Both the position numbers and the translations under genes were made by a program. A stretch of DNA of 64,000 nucleotides from Promethearchaeota archaeon (GTDB taxonomy: Archaea; Asgardarchaeota; Lokiarchaeia; Sigyniarchaeales; SOKP01), in assembly GCA_016840165.1 (NCBI GenBank), contig JAEOSU010000027.1, positions 39,549 through 103,548 of the forward strand, read 5' to 3'. The first letter of the stretch is position 1. Every line of letters starts with the position of its first letter. The notes beneath the pieces were generated by a model that worked only from the letters and a program-made list of their open reading frames with translations, ran no database searches and was not told the DNA's origin. Positions 3,172-60,300 of the stretch are shown here, piece after piece.

Positions 3172-4665
3172 TCATTTTGATTTAAGAAGAAACTGGGTAA
3201 TTTTCAATTGTTTTCTGTCATCGAGATATTTTAAGAATGCTCTAGTCGGTTTTCCGGTTGGAATTGCACTAGATTTAGTTTTCGTTTCGTATCTCTGAAT
3301 ATCACGATGAGAAAATTGATGTTCATTCATTTGATCGTTGAACTTGAATAGCCATTTAACAAAATTTTTATATAACCTTCCGTTAATTCCAGCTTTTGAT
3401 TTATGGTATTTCTCATAATATTCAACGTCTTTATCAGAGTATTCGGTATAATAACGATAATTCTGGCCCATCCAAAAAATATGAGAAACAGAATCTGGAA
3501 AATCACTAATTCTACAGTTTGTTAATTTTACTTTCTTTAAGGACTCCATATCTGCTAAAAATTCGGGAATCTCGTGTATATCCATATTTTCCGAAAGATC
3601 GAGAGTTTCTAAATGCTTTAATCCTTTAATACCTTCAATTTTTTTAATATAATTATTCTTTAAATTTAATTCTTTTAAATTTATTAAATTTTCAAGACCG
3701 CTTATCATTGATATTCTATTATTACTCAAATCTAATTTCTCTATAGACTTGGAAATATTATTTATTCCTTGAATATCTAGAATGTTATCTATCATTTTAT
3801 TCGACAAATTAAGTGTTTTGTCAATTAAAAGTCCAATTAGATTATCATGATACTTAACAAGATTAAAATCTAAATCCTCATAATTTATTTGGGCTTTATT
3901 TAAAAATTTTAAAAGAGGAAACCCCCGGTGATTTTTATATTTATTATAAATAAATTCCACATAAGTTCGCAGAAACTCAATAGGTATTTTTTCCATAGCC
4001 TTAATAAGGATTAAATATTTGTAGGAAAAACGAAAGTTGCCCAAAAATTTGGATGTAGATTTTTTAGCGTTGTTAACTGCATCTTGATTATGAAAATCCT
4101 CCAGATATGCAATTATTTTACGTGAATATTCATCAATTGAGGGAAAATCAATATCCACTAAAACACTTTCAAATTCTTCTTCATTAAGATAGTATAAGTA
4201 TCCATTTTGAGTTAAAAAGCGAACAACACTCGGATGGCCAGTAGCATAACGAATTGCGATCTCTTCTTTGAATCTACTATTAGCTAATGGATCTCCTGAA
4301 TCTGATAGCGCCTTCAGTAATGGAAATGCTAAGTTGCGATGTAATATTCGAGTATCGTAGTTATTATCCACCCAAGCTTGAATATTTGAACAATGTCCCC
4401 AAAACTCGGTTTCAGGGGGGATTAAATTATGATTACGCTCCATCTTACGATCTAACTTTGACGCAGCTTCATCTATTGATCTAATCTCGTCATATTCCTT
4501 TATCTTGTCTACAGGAATGTTTAGTAAAAGATACATACATTGTCGAAAAGGTCGATTATTGACGTATATGACTGTCCTTCGATTCTCTAATCTTAAGCTT
4601 AAGTATTTATTTATTTTAAACTCATTATTAATTGGCCTTTTATCTATAGATGGATTGACAAACAT
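3172..4665 (-). CDS. Leucine-rich repeat protein with Lokiarchaeia-type N-terminal domain
   Basis: LRRs (IEKLDLSNNRI, LKELNLKNNYI, LETLDLSEN); N-terminal EFKINKYLSLRLE...EFWGHCSNIQAW...LHRNLAFPLLK domain typical of Loki paralog families. Confidence 0.85.
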   Translation of the reverse strand: MFVNPSIDKRPINNEFKINKYLSLRLENRRTVIYVNNRPFRQCMYLLLNIPVDKIKEYDEIRSIDEAASKLDRKMERNHNLIPPETEFWGHCSNIQAWVDNNYDTRILHRNLAFPLLKALSDSGDPLANSRFKEEIAIRYATGHPSVVRFLTQNGYLYYLNEEEFESVLVDIDFPSIDEYSRKIIAYLEDFHNQDAVNNAKKSTSKFLGNFRFSYKYLILIKAMEKIPIEFLRTYVEFIYNKYKNHRGFPLLKFLNKAQINYEDLDFNLVKYHDNLIGLLIDKTLNLSNKMIDNILDIQGINNISKSIEKLDLSNNRISMISGLENLINLKELNLKNNYIKKIEGIKGLKHLETLDLSENMDIHEIPEFLADMESLKKVKLTNCRISDFPDSVSHIFWMGQNYRYYTEYSDKDVEYYEKYHKSKAGINGRLYKNFVKWLFKFNDQMNEHQFSHRDIQRYETKTKSSAIPTGKPTRAFLKYLDDRKQLKITQFLLKSK

Positions 4666-4762
4666 GACTAAATAGATGATGTACAGAGATGAAAGGAAGG
4701 ATTTTTGTTATTTCAAAAATAATAAATTAAACTATATAAAACCAAGGGCTATACAAATTTTT

Positions 4763-4791
4763 AAAAAAAATAAAAAAAAATATCAAAAAAA
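4763..4791 (-). terminator. Oligo-T terminator downstream of the ubiquitin-like gene
   Basis: T7, T9 and T8 runs on the minus strand 20-50 nt after the stop at 4811. Confidence 0.55.
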
Positions 4792-4810
4792 GCTGTTAAG
4801 AGATTCCTAT

Positions 4811-5065
4811 TTAGGCTCCACCAGCTTGGGTTGCCATTACGGTTATTACATCTTTTTTAGGATGGATACCGACCTTAGCGAACTTTAGATTGTCGGGTAA
4901 TACTTTTCCTTTGAAAATAAATTGGATCGCTAAAATTGGATTAAGTTTATACTCTCTTTGAACAGTTTTCTTAATTTCTGCTATAGATTGATTAGGATCT
5001 ACCTCAATAAGCTTAATTGCTTGATCGGGTGGAACACCAGTAAGTCTAAATCGATATTGGGTAAT
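4811..5065 (-). CDS. Ubiquitin-like (beta-grasp) modifier, 84 aa, ATT start, C-terminal GG-A; not in the ORF track
   Basis: Manual translation: (M)TQYRFRLTGVPPDQAIKLIEVDPNQSIAEIKKTVQREYKLNPILAIQFIFKGKVLPDNLKFAKVGIHPKKDVITVMATQAGGA*. EVDPNQSIAEIK resembles ubiquitin EVEPSDTIENVK; FIFKGKVL resembles LIFAGKQL; diglycine present; SD GGTGA 6 nt upstream of ATT. Confidence 0.88.
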   Translation of the reverse strand: MTQYRFRLTGVPPDQAIKLIEVDPNQSIAEIKKTVQREYKLNPILAIQFIFKGKVLPDNLKFAKVGIHPKKDVITVMATQAGGA

Positions 5066-5071
5066 CTTTTT

Positions 5072-5077
5072 TCACCT
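5072..5077 (-). promoter_or_regulatory. Shine-Dalgarno AGGTGA of the ubiquitin-like gene
   Basis: AGGTGA-AAAAAG-ATT on the minus strand; matches the archaeal anti-SD consensus. Confidence 0.75.
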
Positions 5078-5220
5078 TGAGTTTTTTTATAATTTGATAA
5101 TTTTATCTTAATTTAATAATTAGTCTTGTAATTAAGATATAAGGTAAACGGTCTAACAGAGTATACTTTAGTATGAGTATTATGCTCATATATAAAGAAA
5201 AATTGAGATTCTCACTAATT

Positions 5221-5406
5221 TTAAAATCGAAACGGTTCTGGGGGCGGAGTAGGTGGACCAGGTGGATAAGGTCCGGGAGATGGACCTGGTCTCGATGGAC
5301 CACGTCCTATTCGGTTTTCGATTTGTGAAATTCTTGCTTCTATTTTGCCTAGTCTCTCTTCTATTCTTTTTATTCTTTCAATTATATTTGGAGTGTCTAT
5401 TCCCAT
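5221..5406 (-). CDS. Small coiled-coil plus proline-rich protein (61 aa)
   Basis: Heptad repeat RIKRIEERLGKIEARISQIENRI followed by a GPSRPGPSPGPYPPGPPTPPPEP tail; the locally high GC is explained by Pro/Gly codons in this frame. Confidence 0.78.
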   Translation of the reverse strand: MGIDTPNIIERIKRIEERLGKIEARISQIENRIGRGPSRPGPSPGPYPPGPPTPPPEPFRF

Positions 5407-5625
5407 TATTTAAATTCACATTCTTTTTACATTTTTATATTTTGATTATATTGATTAATTAAAATCTTCAAGATCAATTTATATCTAAGAAATCCCGACT
5501 TTAATCATTACTTAAAGATTAAGGTACTATACCAAATCTATAGTAAAATGTGTCATTATTAAAAATAAGTCTAAGTATAGGAAAAAAGTACAACTTTATA
5601 TATTAGAAAATGATATTAATTTTGT

Positions 5626-6717
5626 ATGGAAAGCTGGAATATTTCGAAAAAATTGAAAAATGACATGTTAAAGAAATCTGCTAACATTGAAGATAATAGC
5701 CGACGAATATTATTTATCTTAAGAAATTTAGGGCCGCAGAGGTTTACCAATTTAGTAAAATATTCAAATTTAAGCCGATCCACGGTTTCTAAATATCTTA
5801 AGCTTCATAGTAAGAATAATAACGTCGAACAGAAATTAATTACTGATAAAGATACCAATAATCAGTATCAAGGTTATGTCATTACCGAAAAAGGAATAGA
5901 GAAATTGGGCGAGGGTCCATTAAGACTAAAAGATGAGCTTTTAATTATCAATGAATTAAAGGAAAATGTACGTAGACTTGAGGAACTAATAGCCTTTTTC
6001 AAAAAAATTAATTTGGAAGACCCTTTTATCATCCATATCATAAGAATAGTATCGAAAATAGGAGATAATTTTTTTGAACTACAGCAAGATAGAGATTTGT
6101 TTTTATCATTGTTTTACATCTTTTATAATTCAATTCTCGGTCAGGGTGCATTAGCAAATAGATATTGGCGTTTTTATAAAGATGGAAGTCAAAAATTTAA
6201 AGGATATAAATTAAATATTGACCAGTTCTGTAAACTTTTTGAAGTGAGAAAGGAAGCAATAAATTATTTAGCTCGATTAAAATTAATTCAAAGCGATTTT
6301 GGATTTTATTTAATTAAACGTGAGAATAGTGACTTCTATTTTCATGAAGAGGATCTACTCGGCACTACAACTTTAAGACTTATTAGGGATAGGTTGTTTG
6401 ATGAGATAATAAATTTACAGGAAGGTATATCAGAAGCAATATTTAACTTAGACATCATGTCTGAAGAAATAGCGGAACAATTAAGTGAAATGGGTCTAAT
6501 CTGGGGAGCAATTAAACACCAATTTCAGTTATTATTAGTAAATCTAATAGTAAAAATAGCGATTGATATGGGTTTTTTAGATATAGAACGAGAAAAACTA
6601 ATGAATGCAGTTGCTCAATCGAAAATGCTCACTCTCTCTAATGAAGGTAAAATGCTGCAGGAATCAATAGAAGAGGGGAAAATTTTACTTTCAAATTTAA
6701 ATATTCTTACAACGTAA
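5626..6717 (+). CDS. Winged-helix DNA-binding protein with C-terminal helical domain
   Basis: RFTNLVKYSNLSRSTVSKYLK HTH and YVITEKG wing. Confidence 0.8.
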   Translation: MESWNISKKLKNDMLKKSANIEDNSRRILFILRNLGPQRFTNLVKYSNLSRSTVSKYLKLHSKNNNVEQKLITDKDTNNQYQGYVITEKGIEKLGEGPLRLKDELLIINELKENVRRLEELIAFFKKINLEDPFIIHIIRIVSKIGDNFFELQQDRDLFLSLFYIFYNSILGQGALANRYWRFYKDGSQKFKGYKLNIDQFCKLFEVRKEAINYLARLKLIQSDFGFYLIKRENSDFYFHEEDLLGTTTLRLIRDRLFDEIINLQEGISEAIFNLDIMSEEIAEQLSEMGLIWGAIKHQFQLLLVNLIVKIAIDMGFLDIEREKLMNAVAQSKMLTLSNEGKMLQESIEEGKILLSNLNILTT

Positions 6718-12798: not shown

Positions 12799-12913
12799 GA
12801 TAAGAATTGAGTGCTATTATATTTATATTTAGCATGGAAATTTATATATTTTTTTATTTATCACTTTGAAAAAGTGAATTGATGAAAGAATATTTGATTT
12901 AAGGTACGCTAAT

Positions 12914-13666
12914 TTATTTCTTTTCTAATTCTTTTAATTTTTCTACAATTGGAGGTAGAACATTAATAATATCTTCGTTAAATCGTAGATCAGGATTATA
13001 TCTTGGCGGAATCTCCCCACGATTGAGAATAATGAGTTTTGCGCCGTTTTGTTTTGCATATAAGGGTAATTCAGCTGCAGGATAGACCACTAATGAAGAT
13101 CCAATTACAAAAAATACATCTGAATCGATTGATCTCCTTATTGCCTCATTGAGTTCATCTGCGGGCAATGGATCATTAAAATTTACAATGCTTGATACTA
13201 ATCTTCCATTACATTTAGGACATTTTGGTTGGTCTTTATGAGGTGTATCTGTGAGATAACCATTTCCCCAGATATTTTTATCCCAACCTACCTCAGTAAA
13301 AGAGAATTTTGTATTGCAATTAAGGCATTTCATAAAGTGTCGGTTACCATGCAATTCCGCCAACATTTCAAAAGGAATACCCGATTTAGCATGTAGTCCG
13401 TCTACATTCTGAGATATAACATAATCTAATTTTCCGAGTTTTAATAACTCGACCACAGCATAATGAGCCGCATTAGGTTTAACTTGATTCCATGGTACTG
13501 ATTTGGGAGGTGGAAGATTCTTCTCTCTTCTAGTCCAGACACCGTCGGGACCTCGGTAATCAGGTAATCCCGAATGAGTTGAAATTCCAGCGCCCGTAAA
13601 GACAACTAATTTTTTTGATTCAGAAATCCATTTAACTGCTAATTCTATTTTCTCATGTAATTCCAT
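12914..13666 (-). CDS. Sir2 family NAD-dependent deacylase, class IV (SIRT6/7)-like
   Basis: GAGIST, DYRGPDGVWT, SQNVDGLH, ELHGN, two CxxC, GSSLVVYPAA, ILN. Confidence 0.95.
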   Translation of the reverse strand: MELHEKIELAVKWISESKKLVVFTGAGISTHSGLPDYRGPDGVWTRREKNLPPPKSVPWNQVKPNAAHYAVVELLKLGKLDYVISQNVDGLHAKSGIPFEMLAELHGNRHFMKCLNCNTKFSFTEVGWDKNIWGNGYLTDTPHKDQPKCPKCNGRLVSSIVNFNDPLPADELNEAIRRSIDSDVFFVIGSSLVVYPAAELPLYAKQNGAKLIILNRGEIPPRYNPDLRFNEDIINVLPPIVEKLKELEKK

Positions 13667-25562: not shown

Positions 25563-26996
25563 ATTATTAAACCACCCCTTCCTTTCATTTGTACAAGATG
25601 TCATAAAGAATATGACTTAGACAAGATAATATATCAATGTCCTGAATGCAATGGGCTTTTATGGATAAAAACAGAGGTTAATAAGTATAAAACGCATTTT
25701 TCTAATATTAAATCCATATCTAAATTTTGGGATTTATATTTTACTCTACCAAATATCAAAATGGAATATAGAACTAGTATGGATGAAGGAGGTACGCCTT
25801 GTAGTGATTCGGAAAAGATTGGAAAAATAATTGGTTTAAAAGAATTGAGCTTTAAAAATGAAATAAAAAATCCAACCAATTCATTTAAAGACCGAGTAGG
25901 AGCGTTATTAATCTCACATGCTAGAAGCTGGCTTTATAATAAGACCATTTGTGCATCCAATGGAAACCAAGGAGCCTCAATCGCTGCTTATTGCTCATTG
26001 GAAGGAATAAAATGCGTTAACCTTATTCCAAATAAGCTTGATATGGGAAAGAGAGCCCAAATGATTGCATATAATTCTGAAATTATTATCAAGGGTGAAT
26101 TTGTTGATGAAACAATTAAATATGCATTGGATGATAAATATAAAGATTATTATCAGGCTACCCCAATCTATAATCCTCTTACAATTGAAGCTCAGAAAAC
26201 AATAGCTTTTGAAATTTGGAAACAGAGAGGAGTACCCGATTGGATAATTATACCCATGGGAAGTGGTGAACTGTTAGTAAGTTTATGGAAAGGTTTTTTA
26301 GAATTAAAACAGGCAGAAATAATTCATACTGTTCCAAAGCTAGTTGGGGTTCAATCTGCGTTATCTTCACCGATTGTAGATGAATTTATGAATAAAAAGA
26401 AATCTGATATATTAACTACAGATATTCGGAATTCTCATGCATTAGGTATATTAGTGCAGGAACCGATGTATAAAGACTTAGCAATTAAGTTTATAAAAGA
26501 AAGTACCGGAACTGTTATAGCCATTCCTGAGGAGTTAATCGTCTCATCAGTAGATGAATTGGTAAGAAGTGAAGGGATTTTCGCTGAACCATCTTCAGCA
26601 TTAACTTTAGCTGCGGTCCATGAATTAAATGAGCAAAAAGTTTTTGATTCAAACGATTGTATAGTATGCCTAATAACAGGAAGTGGTTTAAAAGCACCCT
26701 ATATTTTAGAAGCAATTTCTTCTCAAACCACTACCTCAGGAAAAGGTTCCATAATAATAACCAAGTTAAAAATATTATCTCAAATATCTCTATCTAGTAT
26801 AAGGGGTATAAGTGGGACAAAGATTAGAGATATTATTAGTTCTATAAGTTTAGCAGCTGTGTATCAGCATTTGTATGATTTAGAAAGTAAAGGTTTAATT
26901 TATCGCAAGAAAGAAGGAAAAATTGTGCTATACTTCATATCAGACACGGGTAAAAGAGTTCTAGACGCATTAGATATACTCCTTACCCTAATCTAA
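25563..26996 (+). CDS. thrC: Threonine synthase with N-terminal Zn ribbon and C-terminal winged-helix domain; non-AUG (ATT) start
   Basis: NPTNSFKDR PLP lysine, ASNGNQG, PMGSG, EPSSA, TGSGLK; the in-frame upstream extension encodes CTRC...CPECNG and is bounded by TGA at 25560. Confidence 0.88.
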   Translation: MIKPPLPFICTRCHKEYDLDKIIYQCPECNGLLWIKTEVNKYKTHFSNIKSISKFWDLYFTLPNIKMEYRTSMDEGGTPCSDSEKIGKIIGLKELSFKNEIKNPTNSFKDRVGALLISHARSWLYNKTICASNGNQGASIAAYCSLEGIKCVNLIPNKLDMGKRAQMIAYNSEIIIKGEFVDETIKYALDDKYKDYYQATPIYNPLTIEAQKTIAFEIWKQRGVPDWIIIPMGSGELLVSLWKGFLELKQAEIIHTVPKLVGVQSALSSPIVDEFMNKKKSDILTTDIRNSHALGILVQEPMYKDLAIKFIKESTGTVIAIPEELIVSSVDELVRSEGIFAEPSSALTLAAVHELNEQKVFDSNDCIVCLITGSGLKAPYILEAISSQTTTSGKGSIIITKLKILSQISLSSIRGISGTKIRDIISSISLAAVYQHLYDLESKGLIYRKKEGKIVLYFISDTGKRVLDALDILLTLI

Positions 26997-58746: not shown

Positions 58747-60300
58747 ATGCCTGAAGAATTGGAAAGAAAAAAGTCAAATGATTTGAACAATCAACAAACT
58801 AAAGATATCGAATCTCAAGAGAATGAATCTGTTGTGGCTGTCAAAAGTAAGCCCGTGATTGTTCAAGCTGAAGCTTATAAAACTATCATCTTATATGCCA
58901 GCAGATATGCTAATAAAGAAATCCCAAAAGCAGATTGGAAAGAAATTTATGGCATACTAACAGGATATGTTGATGATGATTTTGTGCATGTTGAAAATGC
59001 GTATGCTTTAACTTTTGGCCATGATACTGATGTGCAACTAGATCAAAGACATTATATCTTTATTGATGAGATACAACAGCGATTAGATGAAGAAGCAAAA
59101 GGTCATTTTATTGTTGGATGGTTCCATTCTCATCCAGGGCTTTCACTCTTTTTCTCATATATTGATTTGATCAACCAGTTAGGATTCCAAGCCAAAAATG
59201 AGGATGCCATCGGTTTAGTTTTTGATCATACGTTATTGGGTAAAAAGAAAAAAGAGAAAATAGGAAATAACATTTTAACCAAGCATGACACTGGATTTGA
59301 GATCTATAAACTTACAGATGTAAATATGGATCCTAATGATCCTGTTTATGAGAATAATTATCATCGCGTAGATTATATTGTAGAGGGATTAAATAAATTC
59401 TTTTTTGCTAATTTGTTAGCAGAATTATCATCTCTTTCTTCTGCGGGGAGACCACTTCAGTCTGCTTATAAAGAGGTTAAAGAGATTGAAAAAAATGATG
59501 AGAAGAACCTTAATTTTTCTGAAATTGATTATAGTTCGGATACAAACTTATTAGTCGATATCCCTATGTCTGAAGATGTAAGTTTTAACTTGGACAAATT
59601 ATTTTATGATGTCCCTATTCAAAAAGAAGAAGGAGGAGTCACACAAGAAAAAGAAAAGGCAGAAAAATTAATTTATGAGGGAAATTTAGCTTTTAAAACA
59701 AAAGACTATTATAGTGCAATTGAGAAGTATAGACAAGGTATAGAAATTTATAAAGATTTGAATGATTTTGAGCGCAGTATGGACTTATTGCGAACTTTGA
59801 TAAAACTATGTATTACCAATGATCATTTTGTATTAGCAAAAGAATTTACAGACGATTTATTGGATTTAGCAGAAAAACATAATAATCAATTCTATAAAGG
59901 CGTGGCTAACTATATGGAAGGGTACTTATTACTAAAGGAAGGAGATAATACATTTTTAAAGACAGCATTAAACAAAATTCGTGATTCTGCGATGTTATTT
60001 GAGAAGGAAAGGGATTATGCAGGTGCTGGGATGGGTTTCAATAAAATTGGAACTATTTATCAGACTAGGTTAGAGAATTTTGATAGTGCTTGTCTTTTTT
60101 ATAGGGAAGCAATAGAAAATTATAATAGAGCAATTGTTAATAGCCATCCCTTAAGAAAATCCTTCTGGAGTATGCCAGAGTCATTACAAGAGAAAATTCT
60201 TGAATTAAAAGATTTAATAGATGAGCTGATTGACAAACTTAATCCTAGTATACGAAGAAAAATATTAGAAGACCTCCAATCAATCCGGTATAATTTTTAA
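58747..60300 (+). CDS. JAMM/MPN+ metalloprotease (Rpn11/CSN5-like) fused to TPR/SNAP-like helical repeats
   Basis: EIYGIL...GWFHSHPGLSLFFSYID is a complete E...HxH-x7-S-x2-D motif; C-terminal helical repeats. Confidence 0.9.
   Translation: MPEELERKKSNDLNNQQTKDIESQENESVVAVKSKPVIVQAEAYKTIILYASRYANKEIPKADWKEIYGILTGYVDDDFVHVENAYALTFGHDTDVQLDQRHYIFIDEIQQRLDEEAKGHFIVGWFHSHPGLSLFFSYIDLINQLGFQAKNEDAIGLVFDHTLLGKKKKEKIGNNILTKHDTGFEIYKLTDVNMDPNDPVYENNYHRVDYIVEGLNKFFFANLLAELSSLSSAGRPLQSAYKEVKEIEKNDEKNLNFSEIDYSSDTNLLVDIPMSEDVSFNLDKLFYDVPIQKEEGGVTQEKEKAEKLIYEGNLAFKTKDYYSAIEKYRQGIEIYKDLNDFERSMDLLRTLIKLCITNDHFVLAKEFTDDLLDLAEKHNNQFYKGVANYMEGYLLLKEGDNTFLKTALNKIRDSAMLFEKERDYAGAGMGFNKIGTIYQTRLENFDSACLFYREAIENYNRAIVNSHPLRKSFWSMPESLQEKILELKDLIDELIDKLNPSIRRKILEDLQSIRYNF

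Follow-up and report, generated by a model that had tools for sequence, protein, structure and literature searches.

A ubiquitin-family gene of Lokiarchaeia with an ATT start codon behind a Shine-Dalgarno motif

How is translation of a conserved protein started when its reading frame holds no usable ATG, GTG or TTG? This question is raised by a short minus-strand frame in the window, by which we mean the whole stretch of 64,000 nucleotides analysed here. The frame (hereafter Ubl) translates as ITQYRFRLTGVPPDQAIKLIEVDPNQSIAEIKK...FIFKGKVLPD...TQAGGA* with GCC (4816-4814) as the last codon; the 84-residue protein begins with ITQYRFRLTGVPPDQAIK and ends with ...VMATQAGGA. Three codons ahead of an ATT, the frame is closed by a TGA (5074-5072) within the motif AGGTGA, and the sole in-frame ATG is Met77, the eighth codon from the end, with no other ATG, GTG or TTG in the frame. 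The frame is absent from the list of ATG/GTG/TTG ORFs of at least 30 aa. Every feature named in the original prediction, including the T-tracts that follow the gene, was confirmed (Table 1). A scan for hairpin-type terminators found none for the Ubl gene. Archaeal RNA polymerase terminates at oligo-T, and the result fits this mode of termination rather than bacterial hairpins. Rfam searches over 4400-5700 gave no credible RNA family in the leader region, and the fold of the leader is unremarkable (z = -0.2). The genome holds one copy of the gene.

Table 1. Features of the Ubl locus (window positions) and of other loci of the same genome discussed in the text (contig positions)
Feature	Position	Strand	Basis
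Ubiquitin-like protein CDS, 84 codons, ATT to last Ala	4814..5065	-	Translation, Pfam PF00240, AlphaFold2, dN/dS
ATT start codon, at the position that is ATG in most relatives	5063..5065	-	79-locus codon census; contigs of three other studies
Shine-Dalgarno AGGTGA, 6 nt before ATT, with in-frame stop TGA (5072-5074) inside	5072..5077	-	16S 3' end, motif in all loci, duplex energies
Gly82-Gly83, C-terminal di-glycine motif	4817..4822	-	Conservation in 40 homologues
Ala84, one-residue tail after GG, presumed pro-peptide	4814..4816	-	Homologue tails
Stop codon TAA	4811..4813	-	Sequence/translation
Oligo-T tracts T7, T9, T8, 20-50 nt after stop, likely archaeal transcription terminator	4763..4791	-	Sequence; function inferred
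Three Ras-family GTPases, ATT 5-7 nt after strong Shine-Dalgarno	C78:13201-13728; C2:19204-19719; C58:85151-85930	-; -; +	Pfam
GFO/IDH/MocA oxidoreductase, ATT start			Shine-Dalgarno census + Pfam
HisB, imidazoleglycerol-phosphate dehydratase, ACG behind GAGGTGA	C102:138-743	-	Pfam
Flavodoxin, CTG start			Shine-Dalgarno census + Pfam
aIF1/SUI1 gene (L077)	C49:34438-34653	-	113-codon open frame
Ubiquitin-type operon: Ub-like (114 aa)-E1-like (410 aa)-E2-like-JAB/MPN	C58:100026-103104 (L124 4026-7104)		Gene content

The Ubl protein scores 40.3 bits (E 2.6e-10) with the Pfam ubiquitin model PF00240, whose curated cut-off is 25.4, and in the whole-genome Pfam search it reaches 39.4 bits for ubiquitin. 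Its remaining Pfam matches at E ≤ 1 are weaker and all belong to ubiquitin-type UBL families. Homologues at 71-98% identity are found in 37 of 41 close relatives, which together with the E value of the Pfam match places the frame well beyond chance. Across 301 sampled Asgard genomes the gene is present in 68, all of them in the four families of its own class, which is Lokiarchaeia/Promethearchaeota by the source names of the records. Within its family the protein is 93-98% identical, and with synonymous sites saturated between species, dN/dS is about 0.02 (0.019 among loci with ATT; dN = 0 among loci with ACG), and lineages without ATG show no higher value. Overall, the frame is a real, highly conserved gene of the ubiquitin family, specific to Lokiarchaeia among the sampled genomes.

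The predicted structure agrees with this assignment. AlphaFold2, run on an alignment of 40 homologues, gives a beta-grasp fold with a mean pLDDT of 92.5, in which residues 2-8, 17-22, 46-51 and 73-79 form strands and residues 28-38 a helix, and Foldseek matches the model to ubiquitin, SUMO, NEDD8, ISG15 and the Caldiarchaeum ubiquitin with TM values of 0.7-0.8. By HMM alignment, Ile50, Gly53 and Lys54 correspond to Ile44, Gly47 and Lys48 of ubiquitin. These three residues and Gly82 are invariant across the 40 homologues, and Gly83 is kept in at least 90% of them. By inspection, Leu8-Thr9-Gly10 coincide with the same residues in ubiquitin and are followed by a six-residue insert. No match to the ThiS and Urm1 HMMs, which would mark a sulphur carrier of the ThiS/MoaD/Urm1/SAMP type, was obtained in the Pfam scan at E ≤ 1. 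NCBIfam holds no specific family for it, its sole match there being a sub-threshold one to Rad23.

The original prediction of a real ubiquitin-like modifier gene therefore holds as to the gene and its family, on the combined evidence of Pfam, AlphaFold2, Foldseek and dN/dS. The checks proposed with it on the beta-grasp fold and on homologues across Asgard genomes were carried out as well, the latter with a comparison of start codons and GG tails (see below). Its proposal of a UFM1-like N-terminal half finds no support, as the Ufm1 HMM (PF03671) gives no match to the protein at E ≤ 1 and none in the genome. The idea of an intermediate Ubl family fares no better, with no UFM1 among the best 50 Foldseek matches or among the profile matches to solved structures. 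Ubl belongs to the ubiquitin family proper, as a divergent member, and is not an intermediate between families. Relatives also have Ubl domains of lower similarity (42-57% identity; G225:C234:489-731, G306:C31:2060-2299 and 12861-13097, G037:C630:1617-1862), which sit in open frames of 389-535 codons and point to fused Ubl-domain proteins.

We took a census of the start codon by aligning the DNA of 79 Ubl loci at the codon before Thr/Ala-Gln-Tyr. This position is ATG in 43 loci, ATT in 25, ACG in 6, ATA in 2, TTG in 2 and GTG in 1. NCBI table 11 does not include ACG among its start codons. Of the 33 weak-codon loci, 30 have a stop upstream in the same frame and no ATG, GTG or TTG in between. 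ATT is the usual start in genera g12 (15/18) and g16 (4/5); in the genus of the present genome, four genomes, this one among them, have it at one locus each, and ACG, TTG and GTG occur there too. At least eight switches of the start codon are needed, a lower bound counted by genus with genera taken as clades, because synonymous saturation precludes a start-codon tree. In the window, no canonical start precedes the conserved residues, and the codon found at the homologous position behind the Shine-Dalgarno (SD) motif is ATT. Public gene calls for weak-codon relatives read TGA as Trp ('MW...'), over-extend the protein upstream or trim it to 75-76 residues. A start with TGA read as Trp was considered and rejected, since TGA ends 232 of the 1,496 long frames of the genome and no start precedes the TGA in the window; the 'MW...' proteins P0002 and P0003 reflect the reading of the annotation pipeline.

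The ATT was also checked across studies, using assembled contigs. A contig from study P2 is identical to the window over 5051-5201. Two others, from study P3 (2,087 nt, depth 20.8) and study P4 (574 nt), show 10 and 17 differences to the window, respectively, none of them within 5060-5080, and the contigs of all three studies retain the ATT and the run of six A. The differences of these contigs within the CDS are all at third codon positions, which is true of every one in the X6 and X10 contigs; the low-depth X5 contig has one first-position change. As judged from these sequences, the ATT start is real, and assembly error is excluded for practical purposes. The obligate ATT start that had been proposed is thereby supported by the census, by the closed upstream frames and by contigs in which ATG, the sign of an assembly error, did not appear. 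The expectation that standard gene callers would miss the gene was right too, in that it is absent from the ORF list and that its ATT and ACG relatives are mis-called. Its novelty as a hidden gene had been overstated: the gene was indeed missed, but some public records already name the family 'ubiquitin-like protein', and its ATT is one case of a habit that extends over the genome and the lineage.

The weak-codon loci also differ in the sequence in front of the start. In this genome the 16S rRNA has the 3' end ...GGATCACCTCCT, with which AGGTGA therefore pairs, and an (A/G)GTGA motif is found 6-8 nt upstream of the start in every Ubl locus. Predicted SD/anti-SD duplexes have median energies of -9.8 kcal/mol at ATT, -9.3 at ACG and -10.7 at ATA loci, against -4.7 at ATG loci, and the stronger SD at weak-codon loci is seen within all three genera in which both kinds of start occur; as the genomes are related and non-independent, this comparison describes a pattern and is not a test. 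A TATA-like TTATAAAA at 5092-5085 would, if it is a promoter, put the transcript start near the ATT and leave the SD outside the mRNA, but a leaderless mRNA of this kind is considered unlikely in view of the SD pattern. We infer that initiation takes place at AUU in the cell: pairing of AGGTGA with the 16S 3' end would place the small subunit on the AUU six bases downstream, and the initiator Met-tRNA would read this near-cognate codon with one mismatch, giving a protein that begins with Met, which would probably be removed before the Thr. A weak codon combined with a strong SD would result in a modest initiation rate, and the ATG and weak SD of relatives may amount to a similar setting.

Other explanations of the start place it elsewhere or involve a second frame. 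The ATT could be an artefact, either as a miscalled ATG or because the true start is the GTG within AGGTGA (5075-5073), joined to the frame through an error or slippage in the A6 run. The GTG and the six A would indeed enter the frame if one A were lost, and the contig of one run (X10) has a single gap, at a position that was not reported. However, contigs from two other studies over 5051-5201 show no difference or indel at 5060-5080; ATT recurs in 24 other species-level genomes with differing leaders, mostly with an in-frame stop two to three codons upstream; and the GTG is part of the SD motif common to all loci, so that a GTG start would be left without an SD of its own. We consider such an artefact extremely improbable. 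Only marginally more credible is reinitiation, in which a start-stop mini-ORF (GTG-TGA or ATG-TGA) in the SD region is translated before a restart at ATT or ACG with relaxed codon demands. Such a pair does lie two codons before the start in L009, L011, L032, L033 and most g12 loci, but the window has AGG-TGA, without a start codon ahead of the stop, and the ATG-TGA of L013, L014 and L041 is out of frame and at a different distance. The same motif also occurs in the ATG-start loci L012 and L039, and these cases, together with the out-of-frame ones, indicate that it is explained by SD variants such as GG(T/A)GTGA.

Frames with a weak codon behind an SD and no canonical start are also found at other genes. 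In an SD-anchored census of the whole genome for frames without a canonical start, six frames have a Pfam domain that begins 2-32 residues after the weak codon, far upstream of the first ATG, GTG or TTG. Three Ras GTPases among them have their P-loop upstream of any such codon and their Pfam Ras domain from residue 8-9, and HisB has no canonical start before codon 98, which already lies within the domain (Table 1). The frame of the initiation factor aIF1 has no ATG, GTG or TTG before its zinc knuckle, and its candidate starts are ATA or ATT near AAGGAG/GGTTGTGA. The ATT start of Ubl is thus one instance of a genome-wide and lineage-wide use of weak starts. Our literature search returned no paper linking Asgard archaea with non-AUG starts. 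Within the window, a threonine synthase frame (25563-26996, plus strand; C4:65111-66544) carries ATT ATT behind GAGGT, has its first canonical start at codon 66 and its PALP domain from residue 72; a start at the ATG would lose a CxxC...CxxC zinc-ribbon-like N-terminus. A separate observation concerns the tRNAs, for which ARAGORN reports 13 genes only in a genome rated 99.7% complete; unusual introns or unassembled genes may explain this.

Whether Ubl acts as a modifier depends on its C-terminus and on the enzymes available to it. The protein ends in ...TQAGG-A. Of 120 homologues, 26 have nothing after GG, and the others have either a single variable residue (N, F, I, K, Q, Y...) there or a longer tail; some homologues have long tails or no terminal GG, and a paralogue in genome G020, from a congener (L045, G020:C18:14200-16600), itself with an ATT start, has 19 residues after GG. 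The last repeat of polyubiquitin likewise carries an extra residue after GG, and a variable or absent tail is the pattern of processed modifiers, as in this repeat and in the Caldiarchaeum precursor. The GG-A pro-form put forward in the original prediction is plausible on this sequence pattern, with relatives carrying anything from no tail to 19 residues. Ala84 would most likely be clipped, exposing Gly-Gly, and the processed protein could then be activated and transferred by one of the E1-like and E2-like enzymes of the genome.

Genes for such enzymes are present. Contigs C53 and C58 each carry E1-like and E2-like genes, and C4 carries an E1-like gene. The JAB/MPN genes number five and include one in the window, one at C58:102558 and others on C51 and C2. 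The operon on C58 (Table 1) has its own Ub-like protein, which ends ...STAGRLI, and two further Ub-domain frames just upstream, while C53 holds a 529-aa E1 and an E2 with no Ub-like gene beside them. A 250-aa ThiF protein is encoded on C4, 5 kb from Ubl. Around Ubl itself, no E1, E2 or deubiquitinase gene adjoins it here or in five relatives (10 kb on either side, 20 kb), with the exception of the small ThiF gene near it here and in genus g16. The conserved neighbours are genes for a divergent winged-helix protein, a 61-aa protein and a DUF362/ferredoxin protein; a leucine-rich repeat (LRR) protein downstream (3172-4665) is not conserved in the relatives examined. The Ubl copy L045 of G020 adjoins an LRR protein that shares 54% identity with the N-terminus of the one in the window, and the Ubl-LRR pairing thus recurs. 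Just before the window (C4:38399-39518), a Roadblock/LC7 gene overlaps the start of the 250-aa ThiF gene, with an LSM gene upstream, and this Roadblock/LC7-ThiF-LSM block is syntenic in genus g16. The JAB/MPN domain in the window (57.6 bits, ~58846-59196, plus strand) lies in a 524-codon frame, a possible deubiquitinase about 54 kb from Ubl. The phyletic profile of the C53 E1 equals that of Ubl; we discarded this as evidence of pairing, because any lineage-specific orthologue matches at such a strict cut-off.

Ubl could alternatively be a non-covalent adaptor, like the UBLs of Get5/Mdy2 or Rad23, whose Gly-Gly end is not used for conjugation. Among solved structures, the single domains closest to Ubl in sequence are the UBLs of Mdy2/Get5 and Rad23, which are not conjugated; it never adjoins an E1 or E2 gene in the loci examined, the separate Ub-like/E1/E2/JAB operon on C58 has a small Ub-like gene of its own, and the homologues with long tails or no terminal GG would suit such a role. 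On the other hand, Gly82 is invariant and Gly83 nearly so at the exact C-terminus, followed mostly by an unconserved tail of 0-1 residue that is typical of processed modifiers; the equivalent of Lys48 is invariant, and the E1 and E2 pair on C53 is without an adjoining Ub-like gene. We therefore regard an adaptor as unlikely. If Ubl is a modifier, the C53 E1 and E2 would be its likeliest enzymes. The reading as a whole, namely a ubiquitin-like modifier gene with an SD-held AUU start, whose product is clipped at the tail and transferred by an E1 and E2, is in our assessment probably correct.

What is new here is the turnover of the start codon, with a compensating ribosome-binding site, at one very conserved gene; our literature search returned no paper describing start-codon variation of Ubl with SD compensation. 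In Asgard genomes, ubiquitin-like genes are listed among the eukaryotic signature proteins. About 40% of the species sampled in this family lack a standard start for Ubl, so that surveys of the Prodigal type will report it as absent, truncated or oddly extended. One conserved gene with six start codons in about 80 species, and with a stronger SD at weak codons, is also a clean natural data set that bears on start-codon choice in archaea with eukaryote-type initiation factors. A more speculative view, which we hold to be rather unlikely, is that the start codon is a tuned dial and not the result of drift: codon and SD strength would be traded against each other to set the level of Ubl, and its supply would be coupled to initiation fidelity through aIF1, given that weak codons depend on aIF1 stringency and that aIF1 itself lacks a canonical start. 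Such tuning would explain why the codon has switched at least eight times although the protein has remained about 95% identical. If true, eukaryote-like control of translation through near-cognate starts would exist in the archaea most closely related to eukaryotes.

The closest known proteins are the annotated Lokiarchaeial 'ubiquitin-like proteins' (NEF87_002374 of Candidatus Lokiarchaeum ossiferum and proteins from Promethearchaeota MAGs), which belong to the same family, with 71-98% identity, the same length and the same ...TQAGG end. These records start at ATG, whereas the present gene and about 40% of the sampled loci of its own family start at ATT, ACG or ATA and are missed or mis-called for this reason. 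With eukaryotic ubiquitin, Ubl shares the beta-grasp fold (TM ~0.76), the invariant equivalents of Ile44, Gly47 and Lys48, and Gly-Gly with a short unconserved tail; it differs in its sequence (~22% identity), in the insert VPPDQA after the first strand and in ending TQAGG instead of LRLRGG. Unlike eukaryotic ubiquitin, it is a single-copy stand-alone gene and neither a repeat nor a fusion to a ribosomal protein. In Caldiarchaeum subterraneum, an archaeal ubiquitin precursor is matured by an Rpn11/JAB protease and used by E1, E2 and RING proteins (PMC5654768, PMC6043591), the protease being an Rpn11 homologue (PMC6043591). That system also has an archaeal ubiquitin-family protein, with structures 6fnn and 6fno among the Foldseek matches of Ubl, but its genes lie in one operon, whereas here Ubl stands alone and the E1, E2 and JAB genes are on other contigs (with one JAB domain in the window). 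For the start codon, the nearest parallels are bacterial infC (IF3), which starts at AUU, and eukaryotic near-cognate initiation, which is controlled by eIF1 (PMC4705826, PMC5666671). The present case is unlike these in being archaeal and SD-led and in using ACG as well, and we claim no feedback loop; the likeness lies in a conserved start with one mismatch that would be read by the initiator tRNA, and in a start-policing factor, here aIF1, that is itself without a canonical start.
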